From: Escherichia phage vB_EcoM_JS09
Sequence record: NC_024124.2
Length of the DNA stretch: 64,000 bases
Direction: 5' to 3' (one strand)
Of the stretch, positions 1-4,148 are shown piece after piece (the first letter of the stretch is position 1; every line of letters begins with the position of its first letter). The notes below the pieces were generated by a model. That model saw nothing but the letters and a program-made list of their open reading frames with translations. It did not search any database and had not been told where the DNA came from. Made by a program: the position numbers and the translations under genes.

Positions 1-330
1 TGCAACGGTACAATTACCCTTGATGAGGCTGAAAAGCTATTTAATGAAGACGTTGATAAAGCCGTCCGCGGAATCTTGGGTAATGCTAAACTTAAACCGG
101 TATATGATTCTTTAGATGCAGTTCGTCGATGTGCATTGGTCAATATGGTCTTCCAAATGGGTGTAGCAGGTGTAGCTGGTTTTACTAATTCTCTTCGTAT
201 GCTTCAACAAAAACGTTGGGATGAAGCGGCAGTAAATCTAGCCCAATCTAAATGGTATCGTCAGACACCTAATCGCGCGAAACGCGTAATCTCAACATTT
301 AAAACAGGAACTTGGAAAGCGTATATATGA
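1..330 (+). CDS. e: Lysozyme (endolysin), C-terminal part; 5' end outside window
   Basis: Frame-1 translation from nt 1 (...[27 protein letters not shown]...[14 protein letters not shown]) matches recalled T4 lysozyme C-terminus; stop 328-330. Confidence 0.9.
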
Positions 331-608
331 AAACATATAGTGAATTTTTATCAGAATCTATTCTTAACGAAGCTACTGACACATTTGCGACTAAGCTAGG
401 TGCAGCTTTGGTTGAAGCTGAAAGTCTATTAGCACGTATTTCTGAACTTGCTAGTAAGATAGATACTCGCAAATTTGAGCGCACCAGTGATATCGTTAAG
501 CTTGAAGCATTGTTGCGTATGTGCGATAAGCCAGAAGAAATCGCTAAGAACGGCTCGCTGATGAAACAACGTCTTGAAAAATATATTTCAGGCGCTTCAG
601 AAAAATAG
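327..608 (+). CDS. Internal-protein-like (capsid-targeting-type leader MKTYSEF...)
   Basis: N-terminus [10 protein letters not shown] resembles the conserved leader of T4 internal proteins; ATG overlaps e stop (ATATGA); position between e and denV. Confidence 0.55.
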
Positions 609-666
609 TGTTTACTTCCTCCAATGGTTTTGATACTATACATTCATCAACTACTTGGAGGAAATT

Positions 667-1080
667 ATGACTCGTATCAATTTAACACTTGTTTCTGAAC
701 TGGCCGACCAACATCTTATGGCTGAGTATCGTGAATTACCACGCGTATTTGGTGCAGTCCGTAAACATGTTCAAAACGGTAAACGTGTAAAGGATTTTAA
801 AATCTCTCCAACATTTATCTTAGGCACAGGTCACGTAACATTCTTTTACGACAAACTCGAATTTTTACGTTTACGCCAAATCGAGCTAATCGCTGAATGC
901 TTGAAACGTGGTTTCAAAATCAAGGACACGACTGTCCAGGATATTTCCGACATCCCTGCCGAATTTTGTAATAATTATGTCCCGTCCGAAGCGTCCATTG
1001 CGATAAGTCAAGCACGCTTAGATGAAAAAATTGCTCAACGTCCGACTTGGTACAAATACTATGGTAAATCAATTTACTAA
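667..1080 (+). CDS. denV: Endonuclease V (pyrimidine-dimer DNA glycosylase)
   Basis: 138-aa product [34 protein letters not shown]... matches recalled T4 DenV; SD ggagg upstream. Confidence 0.9.
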
Positions 1081-1086
1081 GGAAAA

Positions 1087-1203
1087 ATGAAAATGTATCA
1101 AGAATTTATCATTGAAGCAGAGGCCAAAGGTCCTAAAGTAGATGTTGACGATATTGGATATGATTTTAACAACTTCGGAATTATTTCTGGCGGTAAAGCT
1201 TAA
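1087..1203 (+). CDS. Small internal-protein-like peptide (38 aa) with MKMYQEFIIEA leader
   Basis: Short ORF not in six-frame track; leader resembles IP family; SD aagga upstream. Confidence 0.35.
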   Translation: MKMYQEFIIEAEAKGPKVDVDDIGYDFNNFGIISGGKA

Positions 1204-1266
1204 ACGGTTTACGCTTAAGTATTAATATGGTATAATTGCTCTATCAAAACAAACAAGGAAACAAAA

Positions 1267-1581
1267 ATGAAAACGTATAAAGAATTTATTGCAGAATCCG
1301 CCAACCAACGCGTTGAAGGTGGTTATATTTGGATTGAACAAGTTGAGCCACCGAGCCGCACTTCTACAGGTAAATGGAAAATTACTGTTGATGGTCCTGG
1401 TGGTAAACGTAGGACTCTTAAAGAAATTAACGGGTACTATGAAGAAGCTCTTTCGGATGCAGGAACTTACATGATGCAAATCATGATTAAAAACCCTGAA
1501 AACCGTTTTGCAGCTAAAGTCTTCCGCCGTATTGGTAATAAACTTTATGATGCATATTCTAAAAACTTCCCTAAAGAATAA
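1267..1581 (+). CDS. Internal-protein-like (leader MKTYKEFIAES)
   Basis: Conserved IP-type leader; SD aaggaa; T4 ipII/ipIII occupy this neighbourhood. Confidence 0.6.
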   Translation: MKTYKEFIAESANQRVEGGYIWIEQVEPPSRTSTGKWKITVDGPGGKRRTLKEINGYYEEALSDAGTYMMQIMIKNPENRFAAKVFRRIGNKLYDAYSKNFPKE

Positions 1582-1607
1582 CATAAATTAAAACAATAGG
1601 AAAAAAA

Positions 1608-1910
1608 ATGAAAACATATCAAGAATTTATTACTGAAGCGCGAGTGAGTGCAGGTAAATTAGAAGCCGCTATAAATAAAAAGGCCCATTCATTTCATGAT
1701 TTGTCCGATAAAGACCGTAAGAAACTTGTAAGCCTTTATATTGACAAAGAGCGTATTCTCGCTCTTCCTGGCGCTAATGAAGGTAAACAGGCCAAGCCTT
1801 TGAATGCTGTCGAAAAGAAAATTGATAACTTTGCTTCTAAATTCGGTATGTCTATGGATGACCTTCAGCAAGCGGCTATCGAAGCAGCTAAAGTAATTAA
1901 AGGTAAATAA
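1608..1910 (+). CDS. Internal-protein-like (leader MKTYQEFITEA)
   Basis: Conserved IP-type leader; SD aggaaa; basic lysine-rich product. Confidence 0.6.
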   Translation: MKTYQEFITEARVSAGKLEAAINKKAHSFHDLSDKDRKKLVSLYIDKERILALPGANEGKQAKPLNAVEKKIDNFASKFGMSMDDLQQAAIEAAKVIKGK

Positions 1911-1967
1911 CAGTTTACTTTCTCCTAGAATTGTGATAGTATATTCATAATTACTTGGATGGGTAAA

Positions 1968-2096
1968 ATGACTTATATTAATTTGACTTTAGTATCTAAA
2001 TTTGCTGATCAACATTTAATCGCCGAATACTGTGAATTGCCACGTGTTTTTGGTATAATTCGTAAACACGTGGCAAAAATATTTACATTCAAATAA
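1968..2096 (+). pseudogene. Truncated second copy of denV 5' end (42 codons)
   Basis: [34 protein letters not shown] then diverges and stops; paralogous to 667-780 with its own promoter-like cassette. Confidence 0.6.
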
Positions 2097-2239
2097 AATG
2101 GGAACAACCTGGACCTCATGATTCTATGAGGGATTCCCGCCAACCTGTAATAAGGTCGAGCCCAAGTGCGGTAATGGGTAAATACAGAAATGGACAATTC
2201 ATGCGCCATGGAATGGCCCCCAACCTTAAGAGAAATAAT

Positions 2240-2779
2240 ATGAGAACATTTTTAACTGGACCTTATCTATCCCTGATGAATGCTTTTACACACCATTCTG
2301 ATGCTAGAGTAGAAGAAATTTGTAAGAACGGTTATGCCCCACCATTTGAAGACGTACTCAAGCAGTACTGTACACTTCGTTTAGACGGCGGCAGACAATC
2401 AGGTAAATCGACCGCAGTAACTAATTTTGCTGTTAATTGGCTGTATGACGGTGGAACAGTTATTGTTCTTTCTAATACTTCAGCTTATTCTAAAATTTCT
2501 GCTGGCAACATTGAAAAAGAATTTTCTCGTTATTCTAGCGACGATATTCGATTCCGTTTATTTACTGATTCTGTCCGTAGTTTTATTGGCAATGAAGGTT
2601 CTAAATTCCGTGGATTAACGCTTTCTCGTATTCTGTATATAATTGACGAGCCTATTAAAGCTCCTGATATGGATAAGATTTACAACATACATATTAAAAC
2701 AGTCCAACACTGTTGCAAAAGCAAATATTGCATCGGCGGTATTGCTCGTCCTCAATTTTTTGTGATTGGAATGCAATGA
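2240..2779 (+). CDS. P-loop NTPase-like protein (start uncertain)
   Basis: Walker A GGRQSGKST and Walker B-like ILYIIDEP in ORF 2126-2779; ATG 2240 chosen as first start with weak SD. Confidence 0.4.
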   Translation: MRTFLTGPYLSLMNAFTHHSDARVEEICKNGYAPPFEDVLKQYCTLRLDGGRQSGKSTAVTNFAVNWLYDGGTVIVLSNTSAYSKISAGNIEKEFSRYSSDDIRFRLFTDSVRSFIGNEGSKFRGLTLSRILYIIDEPIKAPDMDKIYNIHIKTVQHCCKSKYCIGGIARPQFFVIGMQ

Positions 2780-3084
2780 TGACCACTATTGAAGTTTTTG
2801 AGTATTGTTATAACAGCCCAGTATGCAATAAAAGGGCTCTTGTAGAAAATTACGAGATCTACCATTTTAAACCTAAACGATATTGTTTGACTAAAGGTCC
2901 GTTCGCAGGTCAGCAGGTTCTTTGTACTGCTCCTAATGCACGGTTGATGACTAGTATTCCGCATTTCAAAATGGAATTTATTGATGGGCCGTTTAAGGGA
3001 TTAATCACTCAAAGTTTAATGGCGTTTAATTCCGTCCCATTTTTGATTAAAGAAAAAACTTGGATAAATTTATTTTCTAATTGA
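2776..3084 (+). CDS. Hypothetical protein
   Basis: ORF in frame with ATGATGA overlap to upstream stop; Cys-containing 102 aa. Confidence 0.35.
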   Translation: MMTTIEVFEYCYNSPVCNKRALVENYEIYHFKPKRYCLTKGPFAGQQVLCTAPNARLMTSIPHFKMEFIDGPFKGLITQSLMAFNSVPFLIKEKTWINLFSN

Positions 3085-3090
3085 GGTTAT

Positions 3091-3453
3091 ATGAAAGCAT
3101 ATCAAATTCTTGAAGGTGCGCATAAAGGCACTATTTATTTTGAAGACGGTACTCAGGCCCGGATTATTGTCTCTAAGACTTTTAAAGAAGACGCTATTGT
3201 AGACCCGGAAATTTTCTACGGTTTGAATGCCCGTGAAATTGAAATTGAACATCAACCTAAAGTTAAAATTGAAGGTGGTCAACACCTGAACGTTAACGTT
3301 CTGCGTCGTGAAACTCTGGAAGATGCAGTTAAGCATCCGGAAAAATATCCTCAGCTGACCATCCGTGTATCCGGTTATGCAGTTCGCTTTAACTCTCTGA
3401 CTCCAGAACAGCAGCGCGACGTTATCGCTCGTACCTTTACTGAGAGTCTATAA
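3091..3453 (+). CDS. Autonomous glycyl-radical cofactor (GrcA/YfiD-like)
   Basis: C-terminal [25 protein letters not shown] is the glycyl-radical signature of PFL/GrcA; T4 is known to encode a YfiD-like protein. Confidence 0.75.
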
Positions 3454-3677
3454 TGGCTAAATTGATTATAGAAGGGTCTGAAGATGTTTTAAAATGTTTT
3501 GCCGCCTGGTTTAGTTGCTCAGGCGAGCAATCATTCACTGAAGCATTTAGAATGGGTGATATTACCGGAAACTATCCGACAACTGATATCACTGTACGTG
3601 GATATGGTATTAATGAGCCTATCCAATTGGTCGAATATGACCTTGCCACCGATGAGGAAATTCCTTATGTCGATTGA
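3453..3677 (+). CDS. Hypothetical protein
   Basis: 74-aa ORF, TAATG-type coupling to upstream gene. Confidence 0.4.
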   Translation: MAKLIIEGSEDVLKCFAAWFSCSGEQSFTEAFRMGDITGNYPTTDITVRGYGINEPIQLVEYDLATDEEIPYVD

Positions 3678-3933
3678 AGATATTAAAGGTTACAAACCGC
3701 ACACCGATGACAAAATCGGCAAAGTGAACGCTATTAAAGATGCCGAAGTCCGTCTTGGATTGATGTTTGATGCTCTGATTGAAGAAGCATATATCTTGAA
3801 AGAAAATGAAACAGAGCAACAAACCAAAGAAGATATGGATGCAGTGCAGGCTCTTAAGTACGCTAAGCAACATCTAAAAGAAGCCAGCATGTGGGCGTGT
3901 CGTGCAGTATTTCGACCTGAGGAAAAATACTAA
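3667..3933 (+). CDS. Hypothetical protein
   Basis: In-frame ATG at 3667 inside ORF 3499-3933, overlapping upstream stop; 88 aa. Confidence 0.4.
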   Translation: MSIEDIKGYKPHTDDKIGKVNAIKDAEVRLGLMFDALIEEAYILKENETEQQTKEDMDAVQALKYAKQHLKEASMWACRAVFRPEEKY

Positions 3934-4148
3934 TGGCTTCTACTATTACTGGGTTATTGGACTTTCAAGAAAAGGTCAACAAAATTTGTAGTGAATACTT
4001 AAAGTATCTTGAAGAAGACCTTGAAGATTGTAAGGAAGAAGGCGAAGAAGACTATGCTGACCAGCGCCGACGCCAAATCGAAGAGATGAGGCATTTCGCC
4101 GATATGGTATCTAAAGAATCTTGGGCTTTAACTCCATTTTATCAATAA
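3933..4148 (+). CDS. Hypothetical acidic protein
   Basis: 71-aa ORF, ATG overlaps upstream stop. Confidence 0.4.
   Translation: MASTITGLLDFQEKVNKICSEYLKYLEEDLEDCKEEGEEDYADQRRRQIEEMRHFADMVSKESWALTPFYQ

Follow-up and report, generated by a model that had tools for sequence, protein, structure and literature searches.

The internal-protein (IP) locus of Escherichia phage vB_EcoM_JS09 (NC_024124.2), of which we analysed one stretch of 64,000 nucleotides (the window), raises a simple question: why does a T-even phage carry two beginnings of the same repair gene 1.3 kb apart? An intact denV gene, encoding the pyrimidine-dimer glycosylase endonuclease V, lies at 667..1080, and an open reading frame (ORF) of 42 codons at 1968..2096 opens in the manner of denV; both, like every window feature described here, lie on the plus strand. 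An initial annotation regarded the shorter frame as a diverged duplicate of the resident gene. Our comparisons lead to a different answer, in which we have high confidence: the short frame, hereafter denV', is a decaying remnant of a T4-type denV that was imported together with the anti-restriction gene ip2 into the IP array of an RB69-type locus, where, being redundant, it was inactivated. Aligned against its relatives, the window discloses where denV' came from, its junctions and deletion endpoints, its decay, and its distribution among phages.

The resemblance that prompted the duplicate reading is real. The short frame is a denV derivative behind an early-promoter cassette of its own, with residues 1-35 parallel to those of resident DenV (28/35 identical, counted by eye on the translations), and a repeat search pairs 667-770 with 1968-2071 at 73% and the promoters, 610-640 with 1913-1943, at 77%. 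By BLAST, 610-770 matches the ortholog of denV' in phage TU01 significantly (75.0%, E=3e-24). The similarity does not extend as far as was first proposed: over the full ranges 610-800 and 1913-2100 identity is only 66%, and homology ends at a deletion junction, 2072-2077. The closest relatives of denV' lie elsewhere, in Tequatrovirus. Nucleotide identity over its 110 coding positions is 90.9% with denV of phage DalCa, 80.0% with that of T4 and 71.8% with the resident copy, and the interval 1913-2077 is 91.5% identical to DalCa versus 75% to the resident-type copy. A sensitive BLAST search with 1905-2245 identified 1913-2077 as the promoter and first 110 nucleotides of Tequatrovirus denV (91-94%; DalCa, PYps14T, slur04, teqdroes and others), while 2080-2245 matched the sequence just past denV in those same phages, where the two pieces stand some 290 bp further apart. 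Hundreds of Tequatrovirus denV genes match denV' at 90-94%, and denV' has the DalCa-specific residues Ile18 and Ile30.

The missing interval can be placed to the base pair. DalCa denV contains GGCAAA at nucleotide 105 and again at nucleotide 397 of 417, whereas the window holds a single GGCAAA at its junction, 2072-2077; 292 bp (nucleotides 111-402) were thus lost between direct repeats. After the GGCAAA, the last 15 nucleotides of the donor ORF are kept, and the final 25 nucleotides of the donor gene, stop region included, are preserved, so what survives is not a 5' end alone, as the initial annotation had it, but both ends of a gene with an internal deletion. The deletion is out of frame, and the new frame ends 6 nucleotides beyond the old stop. 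Identity to DalCa rather than to the resident gene, the DalCa-specific Ile18 and Ile30, and the retained donor 3' end argue that denV' is an internally deleted xenolog and did not arise by duplication of the resident 5' end. The ~75% identity that was read as a sign of an old duplication instead measures how far two denV lineages have diverged, one of Mosigvirus type and one of DalCa/Tequatrovirus type.

What surrounds denV' is equally informative. Megablast of 1-4000 returned 919 T-even-type phage records, the closest being Mosigvirus phages at 97-98.5% (AV110 at 98.5%, TU01 at 97.4%), and RB69 matched at 97% identity with 87% coverage; by these matches the window is DNA of Mosigvirus, that is, of an RB69/JS09-like T-even phage. 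The IP locus, a hypervariable one, is bounded by e and vs.8, both conserved. Alignment of the window with RB69 gives 97.5% identity for 1-1137 and 96.7% for 1130-1638; the match breaks off at 1638 and restarts at 2140, continuing at ~97% (97.1%) onward, with the RB69-type backbone picking up again at vs.8. Where RB69 has ORF123c, the window carries a T4-like patch of ~600 bp (~1615-2210) made up of ip2, a DalCa-type promoter cassette, denV' and, from a conserved non-coding element, the 5' two-thirds; RB69-type backbone lies to either side. The left junction (~1608-1621) falls within the sequence coding for the leader of the IP genes, which is RB69-like up to ATGAAAACATATCA and T4/JoYop-like after it. 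On the right, the window is T4-like through CATGCGCC (~2201) and RB69-like from CCTTAAGAGAAATAAT (~2222), a switch that places the crossover in or beside the last hairpin of the conserved element, which is thus also the right-hand homology anchor for cassette exchange. Within the patch, the switch from a T4-type ip2 (96.0% to T4) to a DalCa-type promoter and denV (89.5% and 90.9% to DalCa versus 64% and 80% to T4) coincides with the -35 hexamer, GTTTAC. The proposal of recombination at a promoter cassette is therefore borne out at this one boundary, while the other two mapped junctions lie elsewhere. Nor need the event be old, as was suggested, since JoYop-type phages carry a patch 98-99.7% identical to this one. 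The 30-nt leader-coding sequence may be a built-in recombination linker that moves anti-restriction cassettes between genera.

We counted alleles with junction-specific 50-mers among 50,697 phage records. The 292-bp deletion junction occurs in four of them (pEK20, AV110, ESCO47 and TU01), and the same junction in four independent assemblies makes an assembly error behind the gap unlikely. Complete deletion of the imported denV, between GGGTAAA repeats, was found in 60 records, mostly of Mosigvirus. When the C-terminal 100 amino acids of DenV were searched by tblastn, they matched 968 places in 967 records, essentially no phage having two intact copies. The phage JoYop (OR769032; locus L006, 474-2898) is the reciprocal exchange as read from its sequence, a Mosigvirus-type block on a Tequatrovirus backbone. 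From vs.8 onward it is 79% identical to the window, as is T4, and it carries, at 97.4%, an RB69-type block (the 3' end of e, IP127, denV and IP125). Next come ipIII and ip2, the latter together with its promoter 98.9% identical to the window. A second, independent leader junction is found there, with an RB69-type cassette joined to the T4 ipIII body in the leader-coding sequence. Its vs.8-proximal T4-type denV is wholly gone, with the cassette's GGGGTAAA now joined directly to GGGTAAA in the conserved element, and this deletion also took two-thirds of that element. Exchange between genera, giving two denV genes of which one is then lost, is a recurrent process, and the window shows an intermediate stage of it, the rarer one.

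In a rival account, the vs.8-proximal denV is ancestral in Mosigvirus, and the old copy became redundant when the intact e-proximal denV arrived with the IP genes beside it. A denV beside vs.8 is the rule in Tequatrovirus (T4, DalCa), and JoYop did acquire an e-proximal RB69-type block (97%) and lose its own denV. In the window, however, the flanking backbone (1-1638 and 2140 onward) is RB69-like at 96.7-97.5%, and it is the patch that has no RB69 counterpart and is nearer to Tequatrovirus (88-91%) than is the neighbouring vs.8 (~80-86%); RB69 itself has ORF123c and an RB69-type (type B) version of the downstream element at this position and no trace of denV. We consider this account improbable.

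We next weighed whether denV' is a maintained small gene, its 42-45-residue peptide, from the N-terminal helix region of endonuclease V, acting for instance in DNA binding or in glycosylase interference against host or competitor. Promoter, start codon and ORF are intact, and four independently isolated phages share the junction allele. Most features of the gene tell of decay instead, and we hold a maintained function to be very improbable. Relative to DalCa, denV' bears R3Y, E11K, L12F, R22C and V31I, so that both Arg3 and Arg22, which we take from the literature on the 2END and 1VAS structures to be catalytic or DNA-binding residues, are substituted, and its C-terminal tail is an out-of-frame read of the former 3' end. 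The TU01 copy has R3Y only, plus one ambiguous residue (an N base call), and by this lesser load the changes are still accumulating. The ratio of nonsynonymous to synonymous differences per site (pN/pS) is 0.42 for denV' against DalCa, versus 0.06-0.17 for intact genes. The Shine-Dalgarno sequence has changed from GGAGG to GGATG, which weakens it, loosens the predicted stem of the cassette (-24.1 to -16.9 kcal/mol) and creates an in-frame ATG at 1959, from which the frame counts 45 codons rather than the 42 from ATG 1968. With 35 of 138 residues left, the product scores 18.8 bits against PF03013, below the cut-off of 23, and fails as a Pyr_excise member; sixty related genomes, moreover, have dropped the gene entirely. 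On these features the 42-codon "endonuclease" ORF is a pseudogene.

In-genome duplication, whereby the resident 5' end and its promoter were copied long ago and diverged to ~75%, would account for two similar cassettes with denV-like starts 1.3 kb apart on one strand, and tandem duplications are common in the hyperplastic regions of T4, but it is scarcely credible and we reject it on the identity of denV' to DalCa-type denV (91% versus 72% to the resident gene), the donor 3' end and stop region that denV' keeps, the T4-type sequence without RB69 counterpart on either side of it, and synonymous differences per site (pS) from the resident gene that are the same for denV' (0.77) as for DalCa denV (0.77).

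Import of a T4-type denV with ip2 would have run as follows. The sequence from e through the gene at 1267-1581 is RB69-type, and a Tequatrovirus-type patch would have taken the place of RB69 ORF123c by crossovers at short sequences common to the genera, the 30-nt leader-coding sequence on the left and the conserved element on the right, an earlier crossover having occurred within the promoter cassette, at its -35 hexamer. The product would have been a phage with two denV genes. The imported gene, being redundant, would then have been disabled by a 292-bp deletion between the GGCAAA repeats, through slippage or illegitimate recombination, with decay ongoing; selection against a second denV would fit this course. 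The promoter cassette probably persisted because it still drives vs.8 and the early genes downstream.

The imported ip2 joins an array of genes with a common signature. The motif ATGAAAAYNTATNNNGAATTT occurs exactly four times in the window, at 327, 1087, 1267 and 1608, against 0.02 occurrences expected from 100 shuffles, and a repeat search returned the same four sites as a 37-nt family of 70-86% identity. The observation of four leader ORFs on both sides of denV is thereby confirmed. Each begins with the T4 capsid-targeting leader MKTYxEF(I/L)xE, matching the N-termini of T4 IPII and IPIII (MKTYQEFIAE), T2 IpIV and the IPs of five other T4-like genera. The prohead protease gp21 cleaves after (Leu/Ile)-x-Glu, and residues 8-10 of the four products read LSE, IIE, IAE and ITE. 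By their sequence, these are genuine T4-type internal-protein leaders. The T4 internal proteins and their capsid-targeting sequence are said to have been treated by Mullaney and Black in 1996 and by Repoila et al. in 1994.

The first gene (327..608, 93 aa) is an ortholog of RB69 ORF127c, annotated "internal head protein", and matches phrog_3499, internal head protein (E=1.2e-46). The second (1087..1203, 38 aa, leader MKMYQEFIIE; phrog_35655, a 38-aa profile, E=1.6e-30) is, by alignment with RB69 and JoYop, RB69 ORF125c (86 aa, "internal head protein") minus 144 in-frame nucleotides, with breakpoints at a CCTAAA direct repeat; the RB69 annotation as an IP covers the parent ORF125c and not the 38-aa allele itself, which is common enough to have its own PHROG. 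The third (1267..1581, 104 aa, leader MKTYKEFIAE) is an ortholog of RB69 ORF124c at 96.7% nucleotide identity and matches phrog_3966 (E=4.5e-34). Its product fits the PHROG profile end to end, and RB69 ORF124c (L001:2911-3183) has 90 residues and another C-terminus (…RFAAESLPSYW), a mismatch suggesting that the RB69 record contains a frameshift or a sequencing difference. The fourth (1608..1910, 100 aa, leader MKTYQEFITE; phrog_7857, E=4.5e-55) is the ortholog of T4 ipII, identical at 93 of 100 residues and 96.0% of nucleotides, and 99.7% identical to JoYop.

By analogy with T4 IPI-III, the leader-bearing proteins would be loaded into the scaffolding core of the prohead, trimmed by gp21 after Glu10, and injected with the DNA to block host restriction enzymes of GmrSD type. 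In T4, leader-bearing proteins enter the core, are cleaved after Glu10 and are injected with the DNA (PMC3012670), and Ip1, Ip2 and Ip3 each inhibit a different GmrSD-type type IV restriction enzyme, Ip2 acting on the GmrSD of ECOR21, a BrxU-like enzyme (PMC12373910). Mosigvirus DNA bears arabinosyl-cytosine and is cut by BrxU (PMC13390438). Since Ip2 blocks a BrxU-like GmrSD and BrxU cuts Mosigvirus DNA, the gain of ip2 by an RB69-like phage was plausibly useful, and an advantage against GmrSD/BrxU may have favoured it.

Several points weigh against the account of import and decay. No donor with both a T4-type ip2 and an intact DalCa-type denV was recovered, and the best matches to denV' stand at ~91%, so either the donor lineage is unsampled or the import was not very recent. 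The direction of transfer is drawn from patterns of identity and not from a dated phylogeny. The contrast in pN/pS comes from 10 substitutions in 35 codons and is statistically not strong. denV' still has its promoter, start codon and 42-45 codons, and a peptide may be expressed from it. As for the array, packaging and injection of the three proteins other than Ip2 would follow by T4 analogy, and beyond its leader the product of 1267-1581 matches only phrog_3966, "unknown function".

The conserved non-coding element that served as the right-hand anchor (2097..2222), directly downstream of denV', T4-like to ~2201 and RB69-like from ~2222, is a good candidate for an undescribed structured RNA and may be more novel than denV' itself. 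It is nearly invariant in the window, TU01, T4 and DalCa, whereas the flanking genes differ by 15-20%, and has an invariant core of ~40 nucleotides and a variable hairpin, P2. The core, CCNACCTGTAATAAGGTCGAGC...GCGGTAAKGG (at 2143-2161 in the window), is common to seven T4-like genera, rV5-like Vequintavirinae and unassigned metagenomic contigs; examples are L004:3480-3604 (T4), L001:3590-3735 (RB69), L009:1468-1555 (the rV5-like EdH4), L066:1322-1409 and L096:3444-3573. In the rV5-like loci (L009, L028, L049, L087) a repeated motif, CCCTTAGAGGGCTTGATAGTGC / GAGGGCTTGAAAGTGCTGG, lies on either side of the element and may be a phage-specific regulatory repeat.

The evidence for structure is comparative. 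Helix P1 covaries across types (GGGAA/UUCCC, AAAGG/CCUUU, AAAGCUA/UAGCUUU, GGGG/CCCC, GGAAC/GUUCC), and when 32 versions are aligned to a covariance model, covariation is seen in each of the five P1 pairs and double changes in 12 of 25 pairs overall, clearly more than in controls with slid partners, a count biased by the fitting of that alignment to the model. A MAFFT alignment of 16 RB69-type versions, free of structure fitting, supports a pseudoknot in which three bases of the 5' junction strand pair with three bases ~10 nucleotides past helix P5; the pairing is intact in 16/16, with CG, AU or GC at one pair and GC or CG at the next, in three fully complementary haplotypes (CCG/CGG, CAC/GUG and CGC/GCG). 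A proposed fourth helix in the 3' part (ACAU/AUGU) was dropped, its changes not being compensatory, and RNAalifold on a mixed-type MAFFT alignment, in which the 5' strands were misaligned, gave no signal that could be read. The element lies between or beside tRNA genes in two metagenomic contigs, a position more in keeping with a small RNA processed to stand alone than with a vs.8 leader; in rV5-like phages it lies ~550-600 bp upstream of the tRNA cluster.

Against a structured RNA stand folding energies no better than those of shuffled sequences (z of +0.6, +1.9 and -0.6), the small number of independent haplotypes, and the sixty phages that deleted most of the element. Searches for an identity among known RNA families, tRNA or tmRNA found none: Rfam 15 gave no match at E<=5 on 1-4000, no relevant match at E<=10 on 2070-2260, and none for the rV5-like or tRNA-cluster versions. 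The element had no match in 5,426 E. coli genomes or among the bacterial and archaeal genomes of 185,579 species, and searches of the searchable literature on vs.8/denV intergenic RNAs, T4 small RNAs and the core sequence found nothing. That the element represents an undescribed class of structured phage RNA is a proposal we put forward tentatively, rating its chances slightly below even.

A coding role had an initial appeal, given the T4 RefSeq annotation, a 217-aa ORF in the window and variation at apparent third-codon positions. Both that ORF (2126-2779) and the 219-aa vs.8 coding sequence of T4 RefSeq (NC_000866 64253-64912; L097:254-913) start inside the element. Most relatives cannot use such a start, having a stop, a frameshift or no ATG there, and we rejected the view that the element encodes the N-terminus of vs.8 or is a small ORF, as 17/42 variants have no in-frame start codon, RB69-type variants have a 1-nt deletion, and open lengths range from 14 to 237 aa. 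The vs.8 start is probably ATG 2240 (MRTFLTG...) or 2276, as RB69 annotates, and the ORF from 2126 an annotation artefact.

The gene order, drawn from the RB69 and TU01 annotations and the ORF list, is e (to 330), 327-608, denV (667-1080), 1087-1203, 1267-1581, 1608-1910, 1968-2096, vs.8, vs.7, vs.6 and more. The 3' part of the lysozyme gene e (1..330), which falls within the 97.5% match to RB69 over 1-1137 with RB69 e at the matching place, forms the left anchor of the locus, a conserved one; its stop and the ATG of the following gene overlap as ATGA (327-330). On the right, vs.8 (2240..2779; phrog_1488, E=1.4e-77) lies in the interval that is 97.1% identical to RB69 from 2140. It has a Walker-A-like GGRQSGKS and weakly resembles the ATPase portion of the large terminase in PHROG (phrog_2, E=6.5e-5), and the protein may be a P-loop NTPase.

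The resident denV, of Mosigvirus type and 137 aa, scores 52.5 bits against PF03013 (cut-off 23), matches phrog_1183 (E=6e-63) and aligns with T4 endonuclease V (2END) over 1-137 (E=2e-81). It retains all catalytic residues: Thr2 (the N-terminal amine), Arg3, Arg22, Glu23 and Arg26. Before it stands a cassette resembling the early-promoter/stem-loop (PeSL) cassettes of T4-like phages (609..666; TTTACT 611-616, a 17-nt spacer, TACTAT 634-639), whose predicted stem, found as an inverted repeat, pairs ~616-633 with 647-664 and takes in the Shine-Dalgarno GGAGG; 604-680 folds at -18.3 kcal/mol (z=-3.0). A second cassette (1205..1266; TTTACG 1208-1213, a 17-nt spacer, TATAAT 1231-1236, with an upstream TG) holds the best sigma-70 match in 1-2800 (10/12 positions) and is identical in RB69 and JoYop. 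The DalCa-type cassette of the imported gene (1911..1967; TTTACT 1914-1919, a 17-nt spacer, TAGTAT 1937-1942) folds with z=-2.65 over 1907-1982. The PeSL consensus of the T4 group is TTTACW-N17-TAYWAT (PMC4122927); 611-639 matches it fully, and 1914-1942 and 1208-1236 each have one mismatch, and from these matches the promoters are presumably active.

In the predicted folds of both denV cassettes, and also in L004:3003-3082 and L003:2994-3070, the stem pairs the promoter spacer with the Shine-Dalgarno sequence. The stem is preserved despite sequence change, T4 having CUCCUGUAG/CUACAGGAG where the Mosigvirus type has UUCCUCCAA/UUGGAGGAA, and DalCa does likewise. This suggests that read-through transcripts would conceal the denV ribosome-binding site and that those initiated in the cassette would expose it, so that denV might be translated only from transcripts begun at its own promoter. 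In T2 (LC348380; locus L005, 3001-3900) the same promoter cassette precedes ipIV, with no denV between e and vs.8; different downstream genes thus share one cassette across phages.

These data provide a base-pair-level view of an anti-restriction gene, ip2, passing from a T4-like to an RB69-like phage, of the short conserved sequences used as crossover points, and of the erasure of a hitch-hiking, redundant repair gene, with four genomes midway and sixty finished. Such exchanges matter when one predicts which hosts therapeutic T-even phages infect and how they evade defences. For annotation, the denV' ORF should be read as a pseudogene and the extended vs.8 start as doubtful, and the conserved element, should it prove to be an RNA, would be an unannotated non-coding gene in T4 itself, hidden within the RefSeq vs.8 coding sequence.

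The finding belongs to known biology, that of hypervariable IP loci and of the shuffling of promoter/stem-loop cassettes, and is an ordinary case, though a clear and well-resolved one. The resident gene, with its catalytic residues complete, is a full-length ortholog of T4 endonuclease V (PDB 2END, 1VAS). Compared with T4 IPI, IPII and IPIII, the window proteins are likewise small, with leader decapeptides that resemble MKTYQEFIAE and end in (I/L)-x-Glu; the locus adjoins e and denV, and the product of 1608-1910 is a 93% identical ortholog of Ip2. The window locus differs from that of T4 in being RB69-type, with denV inside the array rather than after it, and three of its four proteins, known here by sequence, have no T4 counterpart, one being the internally deleted 38-aa allele.

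In the cassette-shuffling model of PeSLs (PMC2839356; Comeau et al. 2014, PMC4122927), our cassettes find close parallels: they are intergenic and run from a stop codon through TTTACW-N17-TAYWAT, with a stem-loop that overlaps the promoter, to a Shine-Dalgarno and ATG, all in a hyperplastic region, with a mosaic boundary between T4-type ip2 and DalCa-type denV at the -35 hexamer. They depart from it in that the other two mapped junctions lie outside PeSLs, in the IP leader-coding sequence and the conserved non-coding element, and in that the stem, as predicted from sequence, sequesters the Shine-Dalgarno, unlike a G/C-tract terminator. In T2 the locus runs e, ipIV, conserved element and vs.8, without denV, which fits natural loss of the gene being tolerated; in the window, by contrast, the loss concerns the imported second copy alone and is seen partway, with a 292-bp internal deletion and with the promoter and both gene ends kept. 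Classical rII deletions of T4 end in short direct repeats, and the three deletions described here do so as well, at direct repeats of 6-7 bp, which are GGCAAA for denV', CCTAAA for the shortened ORF125c and GGGTAAA for the complete deletion of JoYop type. The rII deletions are laboratory mutants, whereas these are natural alleles fixed in wild phages.

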